Sequence record: PQ569716.1
Reading direction: 5' to 3' (one strand)
DNA length: 64,000 nt
From: Klebsiella phage vB_Kpn_K7_rec17
Position numbers and translations under genes: made by a program. Below, piece after piece: positions 51,465-55,385 of the stretch (its first letter is position 1; each line of letters opens with the position of its first letter). The notes under the pieces were generated by a model. The model searched no databases and was not told the origin of the DNA. It saw only the letters and a program-made list of their open reading frames with translations.

Positions 51465-51505
51465 AGCGAGTTATCCACAGACTTATTAACAGGTTATCCT
51501 ACTGG
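51465..51505 (+). promoter_or_regulatory. DnaA-box cluster: perfect TTATCCACA (51471-51479) and TTATCCTAC (51495-51503)
   Basis: Exact match to the E. coli DnaA box consensus; an 8/9 variant TTATCCCAC lies at 51013. Confidence 0.6.
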
Positions 51506-52170
51506 TTATTTATACAGTAGTTCCCGGCAACACTTTCTGCTAATGTCGATTTTAAGGGGTCTAGGAAGCGTTCTAAGCGATTTAAATTTGGGGGAGGTAT
51601 TTTAGTAAGGGGTCGCGCGGTGGAGGAGGGCGGCGACATTCCTACATATCGCCGTGGAAACACTCAGGCCAAAAGTGATTTACAACTGAAACTATTAGCA
51701 GGGTAATGATTGCGCTAATAACTATCACGCCCAAAAACATTAGGCCGCTCATTATTGGCAGCTCTGCAAAAAGACTAGGGTCATAATAATAACCATGATG
51801 ACACGAAAACCCCACTCACCGTCACCGCCTTTCTTCTGACCGTCACGAATAACGTTCAATTGGTAAACGTTATGGCTACGGCTCTTAGGACTACCACCGC
51901 GCAAAGTTCTCATTAAAAAGCCTCCTTATTAAACAAGGTATCATAGAGGGCATAGCCGCAAAAAGCGATAAAACCCAAAACCATCATAGAACCGACTAAA
52001 CCGAGCGCCAACATTGAAAAAGCCATTTTTCGATCTCCTTTGTTTGGAGTCATAATAATAACATAACTCTAGCTGGACGCAACTACTATTTTTAGTAGTA
52101 GACAATCAAATTTGATTCCGCCATAATGCGATCTCTTGAACGGGAACAGCCCCAAAAACTGGAGAATGTT

Positions 52171-52509
52171 ATGAAACTCGCTATTGTTGGCTTTGGCCTT
52201 GCTATGCTTTCAGGTGCTGCACTTGCGGAGATTAGCGCCCCGGCTATCGTTACCCCTGAAAAAGTTCGGCCTATTGAATGCCGTGTCAGTGTGACCTTTG
52301 CAAAAGAGGGTACTGTTACGGCAGTGTTACGGAATCAGGATTTTGATTCCGTGGCGGTTGACTCCGGTACATGGGGATTTATGGTGGAACCGGAACCGGG
52401 CAAGGACGGAATACAGATGATCGTTAACCGTAGCACGTTCAATGCCAACGTGATCATTTTCGATGAGAATCGGGATGAGGTAGGCCGGGGCCGTGGTATC
52501 TGCTCCTAG
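52171..52509 (+). CDS. secreted/periplasmic protein (112 aa) with signal peptide
   Basis: ATG 52171 after CTGGAGAATGTT; signal MKLAIVGFGLAMLSGAALAE; in the frame of ORF-track 52126-52509. Confidence 0.55.
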   Translation: MKLAIVGFGLAMLSGAALAEISAPAIVTPEKVRPIECRVSVTFAKEGTVTAVLRNQDFDSVAVDSGTWGFMVEPEPGKDGIQMIVNRSTFNANVIIFDENRDEVGRGRGICS

Positions 52510-52581
52510 AAAATAATAATTGCTAAAAAGCTGGGAATCTTGCTATAATAGATTCTCAGCCAAACAAAGGAGTAACAGAAG

Positions 52582-53547
52582 ATGTTACAGAAATTTACCC
52601 CCGTTGCTAATTTGCCGATGGTTCGCGGTGGCGCTCGCAACCTGTTAGACGGCAGTAAGTGCGCCTCTATTGGTCATATTTTGGCCGTTTATCGCGCAAA
52701 TATGGAAAGTAGATCCGGCTATGCCTTTGAGCATTGCCGTGACTACGCTCTAGCCAACCCCGGCGCGGCTATCGTTATTTTCCACGATGATCAATATCTG
52801 GTTGACAGCCAGCCAATTGATCTGATAGTATCTACTACTACGGACGCTTATTTGTATAAAGCGTCCGAGGGTAAGCAAGCGTCGAGACGTTTTTGCTACC
52901 ATGAAAGCGAACTGCTTGCTTTCACTGATGCCCGCGCATGGATTAAAAATCTTTGTGATCATCTGGAACTACCACCAGCACGAATCTCTAGCGAAATGAT
53001 GATTTTTGTGCTTGACAAGGACGGGAGTATCCTGTTACCCTGTGACCCTTACGATATTGATATCGAAGAAGGGGCAAGGACTGGAAATTATCGTTATGAT
53101 GGCGAGCTGGAAGAAGTCGCCCCGGCTGTTACTGAAAATGTAGTTAACCCTAATAATTTTGAGACTGGAGCATTACAAATGAATACTATCAAATCTACCG
53201 CTACCGCTATCGTTGCCGCTAACAAAAACGCTGCTGTAAACGCTGCTAAACTGGAAGCCGGTTCTATCGTCCTGAAAAAAGTTTCCGGCATCGCCGCCAG
53301 CAAAGCGCCGTTTATGGTTCGCGGTTATGTTGACACGGCGGTAGGCCGTGTGGTAATTGCTAACCTGCTAAACTTCGCGGTTAGCCAGTATGCGCCGAAC
53401 AACCGCAAAGCGGTGATTGCGGCAGATGCTGCAATGCAGGCCGCTATGTTAGAACTGGTACAAAGTTTCAACGTCGGCGAAATGATTGACGAAGTATTGA
53501 AAGGCGTCAATCTTTCTAGCCTGATTGAAAACGACGTAGCAGAATAA
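52582..53547 (+). CDS. hypothetical pre-early protein (321 aa)
   Basis: ORF track; SD AAAGGAG; Ala-rich C-terminal half. Confidence 0.6.
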   Translation: MLQKFTPVANLPMVRGGARNLLDGSKCASIGHILAVYRANMESRSGYAFEHCRDYALANPGAAIVIFHDDQYLVDSQPIDLIVSTTTDAYLYKASEGKQASRRFCYHESELLAFTDARAWIKNLCDHLELPPARISSEMMIFVLDKDGSILLPCDPYDIDIEEGARTGNYRYDGELEEVAPAVTENVVNPNNFETGALQMNTIKSTATAIVAANKNAAVNAAKLEAGSIVLKKVSGIAASKAPFMVRGYVDTAVGRVVIANLLNFAVSQYAPNNRKAVIAADAAMQAAMLELVQSFNVGEMIDEVLKGVNLSSLIENDVAE

Positions 53548-53612
53548 TTATCCCTAGCGCCTCTATAATGAGGCGCTATAATAATTACCCTGCTAACTAA
53601 CTGGAGAATGTT

Positions 53613-54116
53613 ATGGAAAAGTTAAACGCTACTTTTGAAGGCGAGAAAATGACGCTTGCCGATGCTTTTCGTTATCTGCGTAATTCAGATGAAAGCTACG
53701 AACGTTTTTCGATTATGGTCGAAAGAGAGAACATTAAGGCTCTAGCGCAACAAATCAACCGCCGGGATTGTTACCCCGATCACGACGAAATCACCGGAAT
53801 GGTGATGCGTATTTGTGGCGTTTACGGCTATGGCTTCGATGTTTACCTCGGTGAAAGTACCTATGAAATCGATTGCGAAAATGGCGCTACTGAAATCGAG
53901 GTTGTTTTGCTGCGTACCGATTCCATCCGATTTTCGCTAGAATCACCAGCGCCGCTGCCACCGATCCCGGAAAAGCCGGAAGTGAAAACCGCCATTAATG
54001 TTAGCGATCTAACTATGGATGAGCTGGCGGATATCGTGTCAACGTATGACGAAATCCACGCCGACGCGATTAAAGAGCTGAACAACCGGCTTGATACTTT
54101 CCGCGATAAGCTGTAA
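53613..54116 (+). CDS. hypothetical pre-early protein (167 aa)
   Basis: ORF track; AACTGGAGAATGTTATG initiation region identical to that of the gene at 52171. Confidence 0.6.
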   Translation: MEKLNATFEGEKMTLADAFRYLRNSDESYERFSIMVERENIKALAQQINRRDCYPDHDEITGMVMRICGVYGYGFDVYLGESTYEIDCENGATEIEVVLLRTDSIRFSLESPAPLPPIPEKPEVKTAINVSDLTMDELADIVSTYDEIHADAIKELNNRLDTFRDKL

Positions 54117-54164
54117 AATCCCCGGCGGCTAAATCTCTAGCCGCCCCCATTATTGGAGAAAACC

Positions 54165-54692
54165 ATGTTTCATATGAAATCTTGCGTACCGGGCATTAAT
54201 TGTACGGTAGAAGCGGAAGAAGGTTTATATTTAGAAGGAGGGCGAATTGAGTCTCAGGAAGTCGCCGCCGTCCTCAAATGTGACACTAACGTTTGCGGTA
54301 CGTCCTGGACTGACCTTCATTTTTTAGGTCGTGGAATTGACGTCGATTCCCTTTCCTGGGAAAAGGCTTGCGAACATGCTGAAAGTATGCTAAACGAGGA
54401 TGATTGGGATGATGACGACAGCGACGAAAAATACGCGAATGCTGGGGTAGAAGGGTCGTTTTATATGTACTGGCCCGGTCATTCCTGCAACCTCGTTAAT
54501 GGTGGTTCGCCCCCCCATTCCGTTCTAGAGCGGGCAATCTATTTGGGTTACATCCAGATAGCTGACGGAAAGGCAGTTATTAATCTGCGCGAATTGAAAA
54601 CGTTTATCTATATCCCGGATGCTGAAACTATCCTTCATATTGAGGAAGGTTTAAAATCCGGTTGGAAGGTTAGCGGGGTCGTATACCTATGA
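54165..54692 (+). CDS. hypothetical pre-early protein (175 aa)
   Basis: ATG 54165 after TTGGAGAAAACC; in the frame of ORF-track 54153-54692. Confidence 0.55.
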   Translation: MFHMKSCVPGINCTVEAEEGLYLEGGRIESQEVAAVLKCDTNVCGTSWTDLHFLGRGIDVDSLSWEKACEHAESMLNEDDWDDDDSDEKYANAGVEGSFYMYWPGHSCNLVNGGSPPHSVLERAIYLGYIQIADGKAVINLRELKTFIYIPDAETILHIEEGLKSGWKVSGVVYL

Positions 54693-55036
54693 TTTACATC
54701 TATGTCAACAAATATTTTCTGGCTCACTATAAAACGATGGAAACCGTGATCCAATATGTTAGCCGCCAGAATGCAAGGCATATTGATGAAGTGGCTACCC
54801 TCAAAATCGGATTGCGGGGCGATGCTATCAATATTAGCTGGCCTTTGCTAATTCTGATTTGCCGTGATCTTGTAGCGGGTAAACCTGTTTCCGTTTCCGC
54901 GCTGGGGGAATCTTACCCGCTTTCCGATGATCTGGATCTCTATGATCTGCTAACCAAATATAAAACTGAACGCCTGTTTTATCGTGGCGGGTCGGTATGC
55001 TCTAGCGGCGAAACAATAGAAACGGTATTCCGCTAA
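54689..55036 (+). CDS. hypothetical pre-early protein (115 aa)
   Basis: ORF track; start overlaps the upstream stop. Confidence 0.55.
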   Translation: MIYIYVNKYFLAHYKTMETVIQYVSRQNARHIDEVATLKIGLRGDAINISWPLLILICRDLVAGKPVSVSALGESYPLSDDLDLYDLLTKYKTERLFYRGGSVCSSGETIETVFR

Positions 55037-55204
55037 TAGTTAGCTAACTAATGATAAGCCTGCTTATAATGAGCGGGCTTTTTGTTTTTATGCGCCCCTC
55101 TAGCAATGGCCTTTAATACGTCCTCTAAATTTAAAGCGCTTAGAATGCGTTCTAGAGCGTTCTAGAGGCATATTAGAGTATTACCGCTGCCGGAATATAC
55201 TGTA

Positions 55205-55385
55205 TAAATATACAGTAGGATAACCTGTGGATAAGTCTGGGGGTATCTCGTTATACCGCTTCTCAGCTTGTCAAGTTATTTTGTGCTGTGGATAACTTGC
55301 CCAATAAACAGGAGTGCAGCATAAAATAAACGCAAGCATTATTTCGTGTTTTCATAAAAATAATCGTCTGTCTAGTGGATAACTA
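55205..55385 (-). promoter_or_regulatory. second DnaA-box cluster in inverted orientation: TGTGGATAA at 55227-55235 and 55287-55295, GTGGATAAC at 55375-55383
   Basis: Two perfect reverse-complement matches to TTATCCACA plus one 8/9; the surrounding ~45 bp (TACTGTATAAATA...AGTAGGATAACCTGT) is an inverted copy of 51465-51510. Confidence 0.6.

Follow-up and report, generated by a model that had tools for sequence, protein, structure and literature searches.

T5-type inverted repeats with DnaA-like boxes and a candidate LexA site bracket an apparently inverted gene block in the terminal repeat of a Klebsiella phage

Results

The Locus and Its Genomic Setting

We analyzed a 64,000-nucleotide (nt) stretch of DNA from Klebsiella phage vB_Kpn_K7_rec17 (PQ569716.1; defined as “the window”), in which two inverted, non-coding repeats, here termed arms, bracket a block of small genes. 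The two arms are inverted copies of a module of ~215 base pairs (bp) that lie 3.5 kilobases (kb) apart. The distal arm is far from the A1 gene and near the terminal-repeat boundary, and the proximal arm is on the A1 side (Table 1). A sequence-only reading of the window had reported an inverted repeat of ~45 bp with DnaA boxes at this place. A repeat search identified two blocks of inverted similarity, one of 66 nt (51464-51529 and 55188-55253; 83% complementary) and one of 42 nt (the inner conserved blocks of Table 1), and a gapped local alignment united both of them (~51407-51601 against the reverse complement of ~55115-55298). The local alignment of the arms scored 105, compared with 20.3 ± 2.4 in 300 shuffles (maximum 31), which is ~35 standard deviations above the shuffled mean. 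The inversion is thus real and is located where it had been reported, with a repeated unit of ~200-215 bp instead of ~45 bp. The same reading had counted five genes between the repeats (52171-55036); these five genes are present on the + strand (g1 to g5), and with two more on the - strand (51752-52053) the interior holds seven open reading frames (ORFs).

A megablast search with region 50400-56400 matched 408 phage records, of which the best was Klebsiella phage vB_Kpn_K7_rec15 (99.5% identity over 100% of the query). The phages Sugarland and IME260 (Demerecviridae, Sugarlandvirus) matched the region with 94-95% identity on the opposite strand, at record positions ~4.7-10.9 kb, and the coverage by Sugarland was 92-94%. 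The product of an ORF at 58077-59753 (558 amino acids; aa) has 100% identity to A1 of vB_Kpn_K7PH164C4. The Sugarland counterpart of the region lies upstream of A2, A1 and dmp, within the terminal repeat that PhageTerm predicts (1-10138). Because the Sugarland match is on the opposite strand and in its terminal repeat, the + strand of the window runs in reverse of the T5 map convention. Judged by these matches, the window is from a Klebsiella T5-like phage (Sugarlandvirus) and the element is inside its long terminal repeat, which bears out the earlier suggestion of a pre-early module of a T5-like phage. The end of the terminal repeat maps to ~51252 by alignment from the PhageTerm annotation of Sugarland, a relative, and the distal arm is ~145 bp inside this boundary, where it adjoins direct-repeat arrays of the kind found beside the injection-stop region of T5. 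The window, T5 and Sugarland share the gene order dmp-A1-A2, followed by one arm, the other arm and the repeat arrays. The label “pre-early” for the bracketed genes follows their place in the first-step DNA, by homology to T5.

Table 1. Features of the arms, the bracketed genes and the adjoining repeat field (window positions).
Feature	Position	Strand	Remarks
Repeat field outside the distal arm	50652-51386		Spans the terminal-repeat boundary mapped to ~51252
Direct repeat of 17 bp, GTCGGAWWTGCACATA	10 copies in 50652-51386		Equal to T5 direct repeat D
Palindromic repeats of 35 bp (AATGCGAATGATAATGATTCGCATT...)	3 copies, 51282-51386		Similar to T5 direct repeat C
Distal arm (far from A1, near terminal-repeat boundary)	~51396-51610		nhmmer arm profile, E 2e-56
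Distal box pair 1: TTATCCCCA, GAG, TTATACAAA	51410-51430	+	9-mers 3 bp apart; same layout in Davison (2020)
Distal box triplet: TTATCCACA, GAC, TTATTAACA, GG, TTATCCTAC	51471-51502	+	12- and 11-bp pitch; most conserved part of the arm
LexA-operator-like palindrome TACTGGTTATTTATACAGTA	51500-51519		17/20 to TACTGTATATATATACAGTA; corresponds to T5 palindrome D; CTGG in one half-site
Inner conserved block, distal arm (TCTAGGAAGCGTTCTAAGCGATTTAAATTT...)	51560-51601		Kept in AAS21, Slocum and T5
Two small ORFs toward the distal arm, 53 and 46 aa	51752-52053	-	Sugarland genes 016 and 017, annotated transmembrane domains; 87-91% aa identity
Promoter-like site before g1	52099-52127		Consensus scan
g1, 112 aa	52171-52509	+	N-terminal signal-peptide-like sequence; phrog_24947
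Promoter-like site before g2	52520-52549		Consensus scan
g2, 321 aa, DUF7566	52582-53547	+	PF24450, E 4e-117; homologues T5.011, AAS21 gp199, My1_019, Slocum_013
g3, 167 aa	53613-54116	+	Homologue AAS21 gp198
g4, 175 aa	54165-54692	+	AAS21 gp197 family; linked via gp197 to My1_018 and Slocum_014
g5, 115 aa	54689-55036	+	C-terminal part homologous to T5.015 and AAS21 gp196; phrog_4379
Intrinsic-terminator-like hairpin and T run	55056-55090	+	Closes the g1-g5 unit; hairpin 55056-55080; ends 18-28 bp before the proximal arm
Proximal arm (A1 side), inverted relative to the distal arm	~55108-55321		nhmmer arm profile, E 4.5e-54
Inner conserved block, proximal arm	55115-55156		Inverted copy of 51560-51601, 83%
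LexA-operator-like palindrome TACTGTATAAATATACAGTA	55198-55217		19/20 to TACTGTATATATATACAGTA; CTGT-N8-ACAG intact
Proximal box triplet: ATACCCCCA (degenerate), GAC, TTATCCACA, GG, TTATCCTAC	55215-55246	-	Read from the sequence
Proximal outer DnaA box, perfect TTATCCACA	55287-55295	-	Counterpart, by alignment, of the second box in distal pair 1; partner degenerate

Homology of the Arms to the T5 Terminal Inverted Repeats

The T5 record AY587007 annotates inverted repeats C (IRC, 6022-6060), D (IRD, 6112-6152), D′ (IRD′, 9332-9372) and C′ (IRC′, 9424-9462), along with palindrome D (9330-9349) and direct repeats C and D. The sequence-only reading had proposed an alignment to the T5 terminal repeat, and in that comparison (MAFFT) both window arms aligned with T5 9310-9484 and 6000-6174 through palindrome D and the paired boxes. 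The distal arm is orthologous to IRD′-spacer-IRC′ with an inner extension, and the proximal arm to IRC-spacer-IRD. The gap between the IRC′- and IRD′-equivalent parts of the distal arm is 51 bp, the same as in T5 (GenBank feature coordinates). The T5 arms were also detected with an nhmmer arm profile (E 1e-50 and 4e-43).

We built a first arm profile from 14 arms and a second one from 21 arms, and identified related elements in phages of many hosts. Two full copies of the arm were detected in the window phage, Sugarland, T5, Eps7, Ace, Pantoea phage AAS21, Pectobacterium phage My1, and Serratia phages Slocum and Kamaji (14-arm profile, E 1e-35 to 1e-57). One full copy was detected in Proteus phage Stubb, Providencia phage PR1, an Aeromonas phage and two Vibrio phages (21-arm profile). 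The distal arm is the only arm present in all lineages, and all the arm-bearing phages have both A1 and A2. The spacing of the two arms, calculated from their coordinates, varies from ~3.0 kb in T5 to ~5.2 kb in Slocum. The similarity extends well beyond the DnaA boxes, and relatives of at least six genera also have conserved, inverted copies of the flanks, so the outcome that the sequence-only reading had named as refuting did not occur.

Based on sequence homology, the arms are almost certainly the Sugarlandvirus version of the IRC/IRD and IRD′/IRC′ element of the T5 terminal repeat, which the sequence-only reading did not recognize. DnaA-box inverted repeats around pre-early genes are therefore already known, also in Sugarlandvirus. 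A preprint reported two 131-bp inverted repeats with a constant spacer and eight boxes of DnaA or DnaA-like sequence, paired at a distance of 3 bp, documented them in 25 T5-like phages, including IME260 and Sugarland, with a variable inter-repeat distance, and proposed them as part of an injection-stop signal via membrane-bound DnaA (Davison, 2020). The paired DnaA boxes of the T5 repeats were described by Heusterspreute (1987), as cited in that preprint, and the same T5 repeats by Wang (2005), according to the GenBank annotation.

The element in the window shares with that of T5 the homologous sequence, palindrome D, the paired boxes with 3-bp spacing and the 51-bp gap, and also its position in the terminal repeat, with the pre-early genes next to A2 on one side and the arrays of direct repeats D and C on the other. 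The two differ in four respects. In T5 131 bp are annotated, and in the window the similarity between the arms continues inward for ~80 bp more. The proximal arm of the window has a degenerate outermost box, and the two arm sequence types are at swapped positions on several segments. Moreover, the bracketed genes of the window are inverted.

Arm Anatomy and DnaA-Type Boxes

The anatomy of the arm was determined from an alignment of 21 arms from 12 phages. The outermost element is CACTnnCATTTrAG, followed by box pair 1, which comprises two DnaA-like 9-mers 3 bp apart. Further inward is TTGAC, which is kept in 18 of the 21 arms, and then ~20 variable bases. These lead to GAG-TTATCCACA-GAC-TTATCCACA-GG-TTATCCTAC, an array of three head-to-tail TTATCC 9-mers with a 12- and 11-bp pitch, or approximately one helical turn. 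The palindrome TACTGTATAwwTATACAGTA overlaps the last 9-mer by 3 nt and is followed by ~40 variable bases, and the innermost element of the arm is TCTAGAACGC..TTCTAAGCG-ATTTAAATTT. The 9-mer triplet and the palindrome make up a 52-nt core that is 75-96% identical between any two arms, compared with 40-70% for the neighboring segments; identity among the A1 proteins of these phages is 59-75%.

Perfect TTATCCACA boxes occur three times in the window, at 51471 (+), 55226 (-) and 55287 (-), compared with a mean of 0.68 in shuffles. Of the 18 window sites within one mismatch of the box, 5 fall in 537 bp at or beside the arms (expected 0.11; Poisson P ~1e-7). The sequence-only reading had placed two extra boxes beyond the second repeat copy. 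The one at 55287 is indeed perfect and belongs inside the proximal arm, and the one given as 55375 is TTATCCACT at 55374-55382 (-), which has one mismatch. Losses of boxes in IRC have been noted for T5-like phages (Davison, 2020).

Within the arms, the AT content over 40 bp does not exceed 0.70, and the sole richer stretch (0.75, 55350-55410) is outside the arm. There are 1 and 0 GATC sites in the two arms, which is no enrichment, and neither an AT-rich unwinding block nor a 13-mer-like repeat was identified beside the box arrays. Rfam returned no structured-RNA match in 50400-56500 at E values up to 0.1. A host origin of the arm was also considered and rejected, as a sensitive blastn search gave no match among 5,426 E. 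coli genomes.

A LexA-Like Palindrome in the Arms

The LexA SOS-box consensus of Gammaproteobacteria is TACTGTATATATATACAGTA, and, as far as is known, hosts of nine genera, from Escherichia to Vibrio, share the CTGT-N8-ACAG LexA motif. Besides the palindromes at 55198-55217 and 51500-51519, no site in the 64 kb has 5 or fewer mismatches to the 20-mer consensus, and 50 shuffles yielded none within 3 mismatches. The 20-mer of the proximal arm is identical to T5 palindrome D (AY587007 9330-9349). Among the phages examined, every one has CTGT-N8-ACAG or a one-base variant in its arm, for example Vibrio phage Cody (TACTGTATAAATATACAGTG) and the Aeromonas phage. The motif is thus kept in phages of Escherichia, Salmonella, Klebsiella, Serratia, Pantoea, Pectobacterium, Proteus, Aeromonas and Vibrio. 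In IMG/VR, the composite motif TTATCCTACTGKATAWWTATACAG was detected only on contigs of 96-123 kb, which is the size of T5-like genomes.

The arm palindromes resemble gammaproteobacterial LexA operators in the matches listed in Table 1, and from this resemblance it is probable that LexA binds them. They differ from such operators in that they have no recognizable promoter overlap, and they are located in a non-coding repeat of a virulent phage, where they abut a DnaA-box array. The text of Davison (2020) contains neither “LexA” nor “SOS.” Our literature search found no link between T5 and LexA, though older works (Heusterspreute, 1987; Wang, 2005; Davison, 2015) were not covered and priority is uncertain. 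With that reservation, the candidate LexA site in T5-type arms seems to be new relative to the published accounts covered.

Orientation of the Bracketed Genes and Mosaicism of the Arms

The protein encoded by g2 matches T5.011 over 97% of its length with 35% identity (E 1e-49), and that encoded by g5 matches T5.015 (E 8e-7). Both g2 and g5 match the + strand of T5, whereas A1, A2 and three neighboring genes match the - strand. AAS21 has homologues of g2, g3, g4 and g5 that keep the gene order of the window and are divergent from A1. In My1, the genes My1_019, My1_018 and My1_016 match T5.011, the g4 family and T5.017, respectively, and all are reversed relative to T5. Across the phages compared, T5, Eps7, Ace, AAS21, Slocum, Kamaji, Stubb and PR1 have an interior that diverges from A1, and the window phage, Sugarland and My1 have one that is co-directional with A1. 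By these protein matches, the bracketed genes represent a collinear inversion relative to T5 and not a replacement. The earlier suggestion that the repeats mark the borders of an exchangeable cassette is partly supported: the arms are conserved across genera, and the interior varies in length and content and occurs in both orientations.

In a neighbor-joining tree of A1, T5 and the Sugarland group are sisters (100% bootstrap support), and My1 falls outside this pair. Thus, we infer that the orientation of the interior changed at least twice. A literature search, with the same older works outside its coverage and thus with uncertain priority, found no described inversion. The inversion of the bracketed genes relative to T5 seems to be a second point that goes beyond the published accounts covered.

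Segment-wise pairwise identities revealed that the arms are of two sequence types, with the segments distributed as mosaics. We used these identities in place of a column-wise typing of “informative sites,” which was confounded by a 1-nt alignment shift between the types. In the proximal arm of T5, segment S1 is 87% identical to the distal arm of AAS21 and 55% identical to its proximal arm; segment S2 follows position. In the distal arms of T5 and Eps7, segments S4 and S5 share 71-77% identity with the proximal arm of the window and 57-58% with its distal arm. The two My1 arms are each other's best match over the inner segments (72%). Such mosaic arms indicate recombination from arm to arm, which may have occurred by repeated crossover or gene conversion.

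Bracketed Genes and Neighboring Features

The DUF7566 gene (g2) is the only interior gene common to all loci examined, and DUF7566 is confined to T5-like phages. Regarding the function of the bracketed genes, DUF7566 was the only Pfam match, all PHROGs matches are to families of “unknown function,” and PADLOC returned nothing. The AlphaFold model of the g2 protein was poor (pLDDT 59), and a Foldseek search against PDB gave nothing below E 0.14. In DUF7566 homologues (e.g., L003 6495-7505), only the C-terminal ~130 residues are conserved across genera and the N-terminal domain is lineage-specific. The conserved C-terminal part is predicted, with low confidence, to be helical.

The g3 gene is 65% identical to its Sugarland counterpart (Sugarland 8100-8594), compared with 94-99% for the neighboring genes, which suggests a local replacement of this gene. 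Sugarland also has an extra gene of 243 bp (010, 9516-9758) between g5 and the terminator that is absent from the window phage. In Sugarlandvirus and My1, which have the flipped interior, two to three small lineage-specific genes are located between the DUF7566 gene and the distal arm and read toward this arm (window 51752-52053; My1 10609-11545). Thus, some transcription still points at the entering DNA end.

The stretch directly outside the proximal arm (55330-55425) is AT-rich (up to 75% AT) and probably corresponds to T5 Repeat Regions 1 and 2. Beside it are two further DnaA-like 9-mers, the TTATCCACT noted above and TTATTAACA at ~55417 (+). The 9-mer TTCTAAGCG occurs five times in the window (50507, 50570, 51571, 55137 (-) and 55449), with all the copies within 50507-55449, and ~0.5 were expected from a uniform-base estimate. 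Two of the copies are in the arms, one is in a palindrome (55428-55465) beyond the proximal arm, and two are beyond the repeat arrays. TTCTAAGCG may be a further protein-binding motif.

We considered whether the 35-bp palindromic repeats of the outer field are Fur boxes and rejected this reading. They match the consensus at only 13-15 of 19 positions, the window has 28 such sites (9 in shuffles), and stronger matches occur elsewhere. At 60929-60953, probably in the dmp coding region, two overlapping sites (GATGATGATAATGATTATC and GATAATGATTATCAATATC) each match the Fur-box consensus at 17 of 19 positions, and these may be a coding coincidence.

Discussion

We propose that the arms are conserved, non-coding elements that act in cis, at which host DNA-binding proteins dock on the first DNA inside the cell. 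The arms bracket the variable half of this first-step-transfer (pre-early) DNA. In this proposal DnaA, as put forward by Davison, would bind the box array and LexA would bind the palindrome, and the two would assemble into a nucleoprotein complex. The complex would not act as an origin; it would be part of the apparatus that halts DNA transfer at the end of the first step and then hands it over, with the distal arm as the key copy. Recombination between the inverted arms, or between the arms of co-infecting phages, would have flipped the bracketed genes in the course of evolution. Taken as a whole, with the identity of the arms and their mechanism combined, we consider this the best explanation and a reasonably probable one. 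The transfer-stop mechanism with host proteins on the arms, taken by itself, is tentative, and its chances appear somewhat short of even. We regard as doubtful, albeit possible, the fuller version in which composite LexA and DnaA operators matter for the stop and restart of two-step transfer or for pre-early timing, and in which the arms also let the cassette flip repeatedly.

Several points weigh against this proposal. Our literature search found no binding or injection experiment on the arms in any phage. The model of DnaA in the injection stop is a hypothesis from a preprint, and two-step transfer was verified only in T5 and BF23 (Davison, 2020). The CTGG half-site of the distal palindrome should weaken LexA binding, and a phage protein such as A2 could recognize the same palindrome. 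A consensus scan found no promoter-like site in or overlapping either palindrome, so these are not classical SOS operators. Regarding the inversion, the breakpoints cannot be mapped at the nucleotide level because the interiors have diverged, and the order of events cannot be reconstructed. The arm mosaics require more than one event or gene conversion, and the lineage-specific small genes sit between g2 and the distal arm. Finally, a synthetic flipped junction was contiguous in 0 of 209 matching phage records (78 Klebsiella phages), in which consensus assemblies hide minority orientations. We infer from this that the orientation is fixed in the genus and that flipping is rare and ancient.

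The latter result bears on whether the cassette is an active invertible switch, a possibility that we rejected given the absence of flipped junctions and of any recombinase family among the seven interior ORFs (Pfam and PHROGs). The locus resembles Mu G, P1 C and Salmonella hin in that inverted repeats enclose a set of genes that occurs in either orientation. It differs from them in that no invertase gene was identified in or beside the block by Pfam and PHROGs searches, the arms are ~200 bp long and diverged (83% over the best 66 nt), and the orientation is fixed in the genus. In comparison with a programmed switch, the pattern in these genomes looks like a rare evolutionary inversion by homologous recombination.

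The arms could instead be mainly recombination borders, with the cassette swapped between co-infecting T5-like phages in either orientation and any protein binding incidental. This would fit the variable arm spacing and gene content, with only DUF7566 common to all, as well as the mosaic arms, the at least two changes of orientation and the divergence of g3 from Sugarland within the genus. However, neutral borders would not keep the 52-nt core, the phasing of the boxes and an exact palindrome at 75-96% identity across genera. Nor would they persist as a single copy without an inverted partner, as in Stubb, PR1 and the Aeromonas and Vibrio phages. Moreover, the mosaic junctions within the genus (g3 and Sugarland gene 010) are in the interior and not at the arms. 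A border role is supported as a by-product of evolution, but we consider it improbable that the arms are mainly borders.

It is also rather improbable that the arms are transcriptional operators or roadblocks, at which LexA and DnaA, or A1 and A2, set the timing of pre-early transcription on the two sides of the cassette or insulate it. A near-consensus LexA-type palindrome beside DnaA-like boxes would suit such a role, as would the TTGAC kept in most arms, the divergent pre-early promoters that are annotated on the two sides of the proximal arm in T5, and the g1-g5 terminator that ends shortly before the proximal arm. However, a scan found no sigma-70-like promoter in either arm, and the conserved TTGAC has no suitable -10 element 16-18 bp after it, so a promoter inside the arms was rejected. 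Furthermore, the outer side of the distal arm has no downstream gene and faces only repeat arrays.

A third alternative is that the palindrome and repeats are recognition or cleavage sites of A1 and A2. In the restriction-like model of Davison, the first-step DNA is cut and transfer resumes; the likeness to host operators would then be mimicry or coincidence. A1 and A2 do accompany the arms in every phage, A2 is a dimeric double-strand-DNA-binding protein, and palindrome D is among the candidate cleavage palindromes (Davison, 2020). On the other hand, the 19/20 LexA match and the canonical TTATCCACA boxes are hard to explain without host proteins. In addition, the portions of Davison (2020) consulted report no sequence specificity for A2 and no site-specific nuclease activity for A1. 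Overall, we find this alternative quite unlikely.

The origin-like or DnaA-titrating element that the sequence-only reading had suggested is very unlikely: the canonical and near-canonical boxes in head-to-tail arrays with 11-12-bp pitch are reminiscent of oriC, but the arrays lack an adjacent AT-rich unwinding element, 13-mer-like repeats and GATC enrichment, T5 origins are near the genome center and the replication genes are silent while only first-step DNA is inside the cell (Davison, 2020), and by our reckoning the ~10 boxes per terminal repeat would be a small load relative to host DnaA. The arms are like E. coli oriC, datA and DARS in combining the canonical TTATCCACA with weaker 9-mers, head to tail and with 2-3-bp gaps. 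They are unlike them in having no unwinding element or GATC cluster, in occurring as two inverted copies in a phage terminal repeat, and in being unmatched in the E. coli genomes searched.

The stop of T5 DNA entry at ~8% of the genome is a decades-old open question, and the arm repeats are the main candidate for the stop signal. A near-perfect candidate LexA site at palindrome D, conserved from enterobacterial to Vibrio phages, would add a second host factor beside DnaA. A true inversion together with mosaic arms would mean that the arms recombine with each other and that the orientation of the bracketed genes relative to the entering DNA end is unconstrained. If the proposed mechanism is true, DNA transfer in these phages would be tied to the SOS and replication-initiation state of the host.

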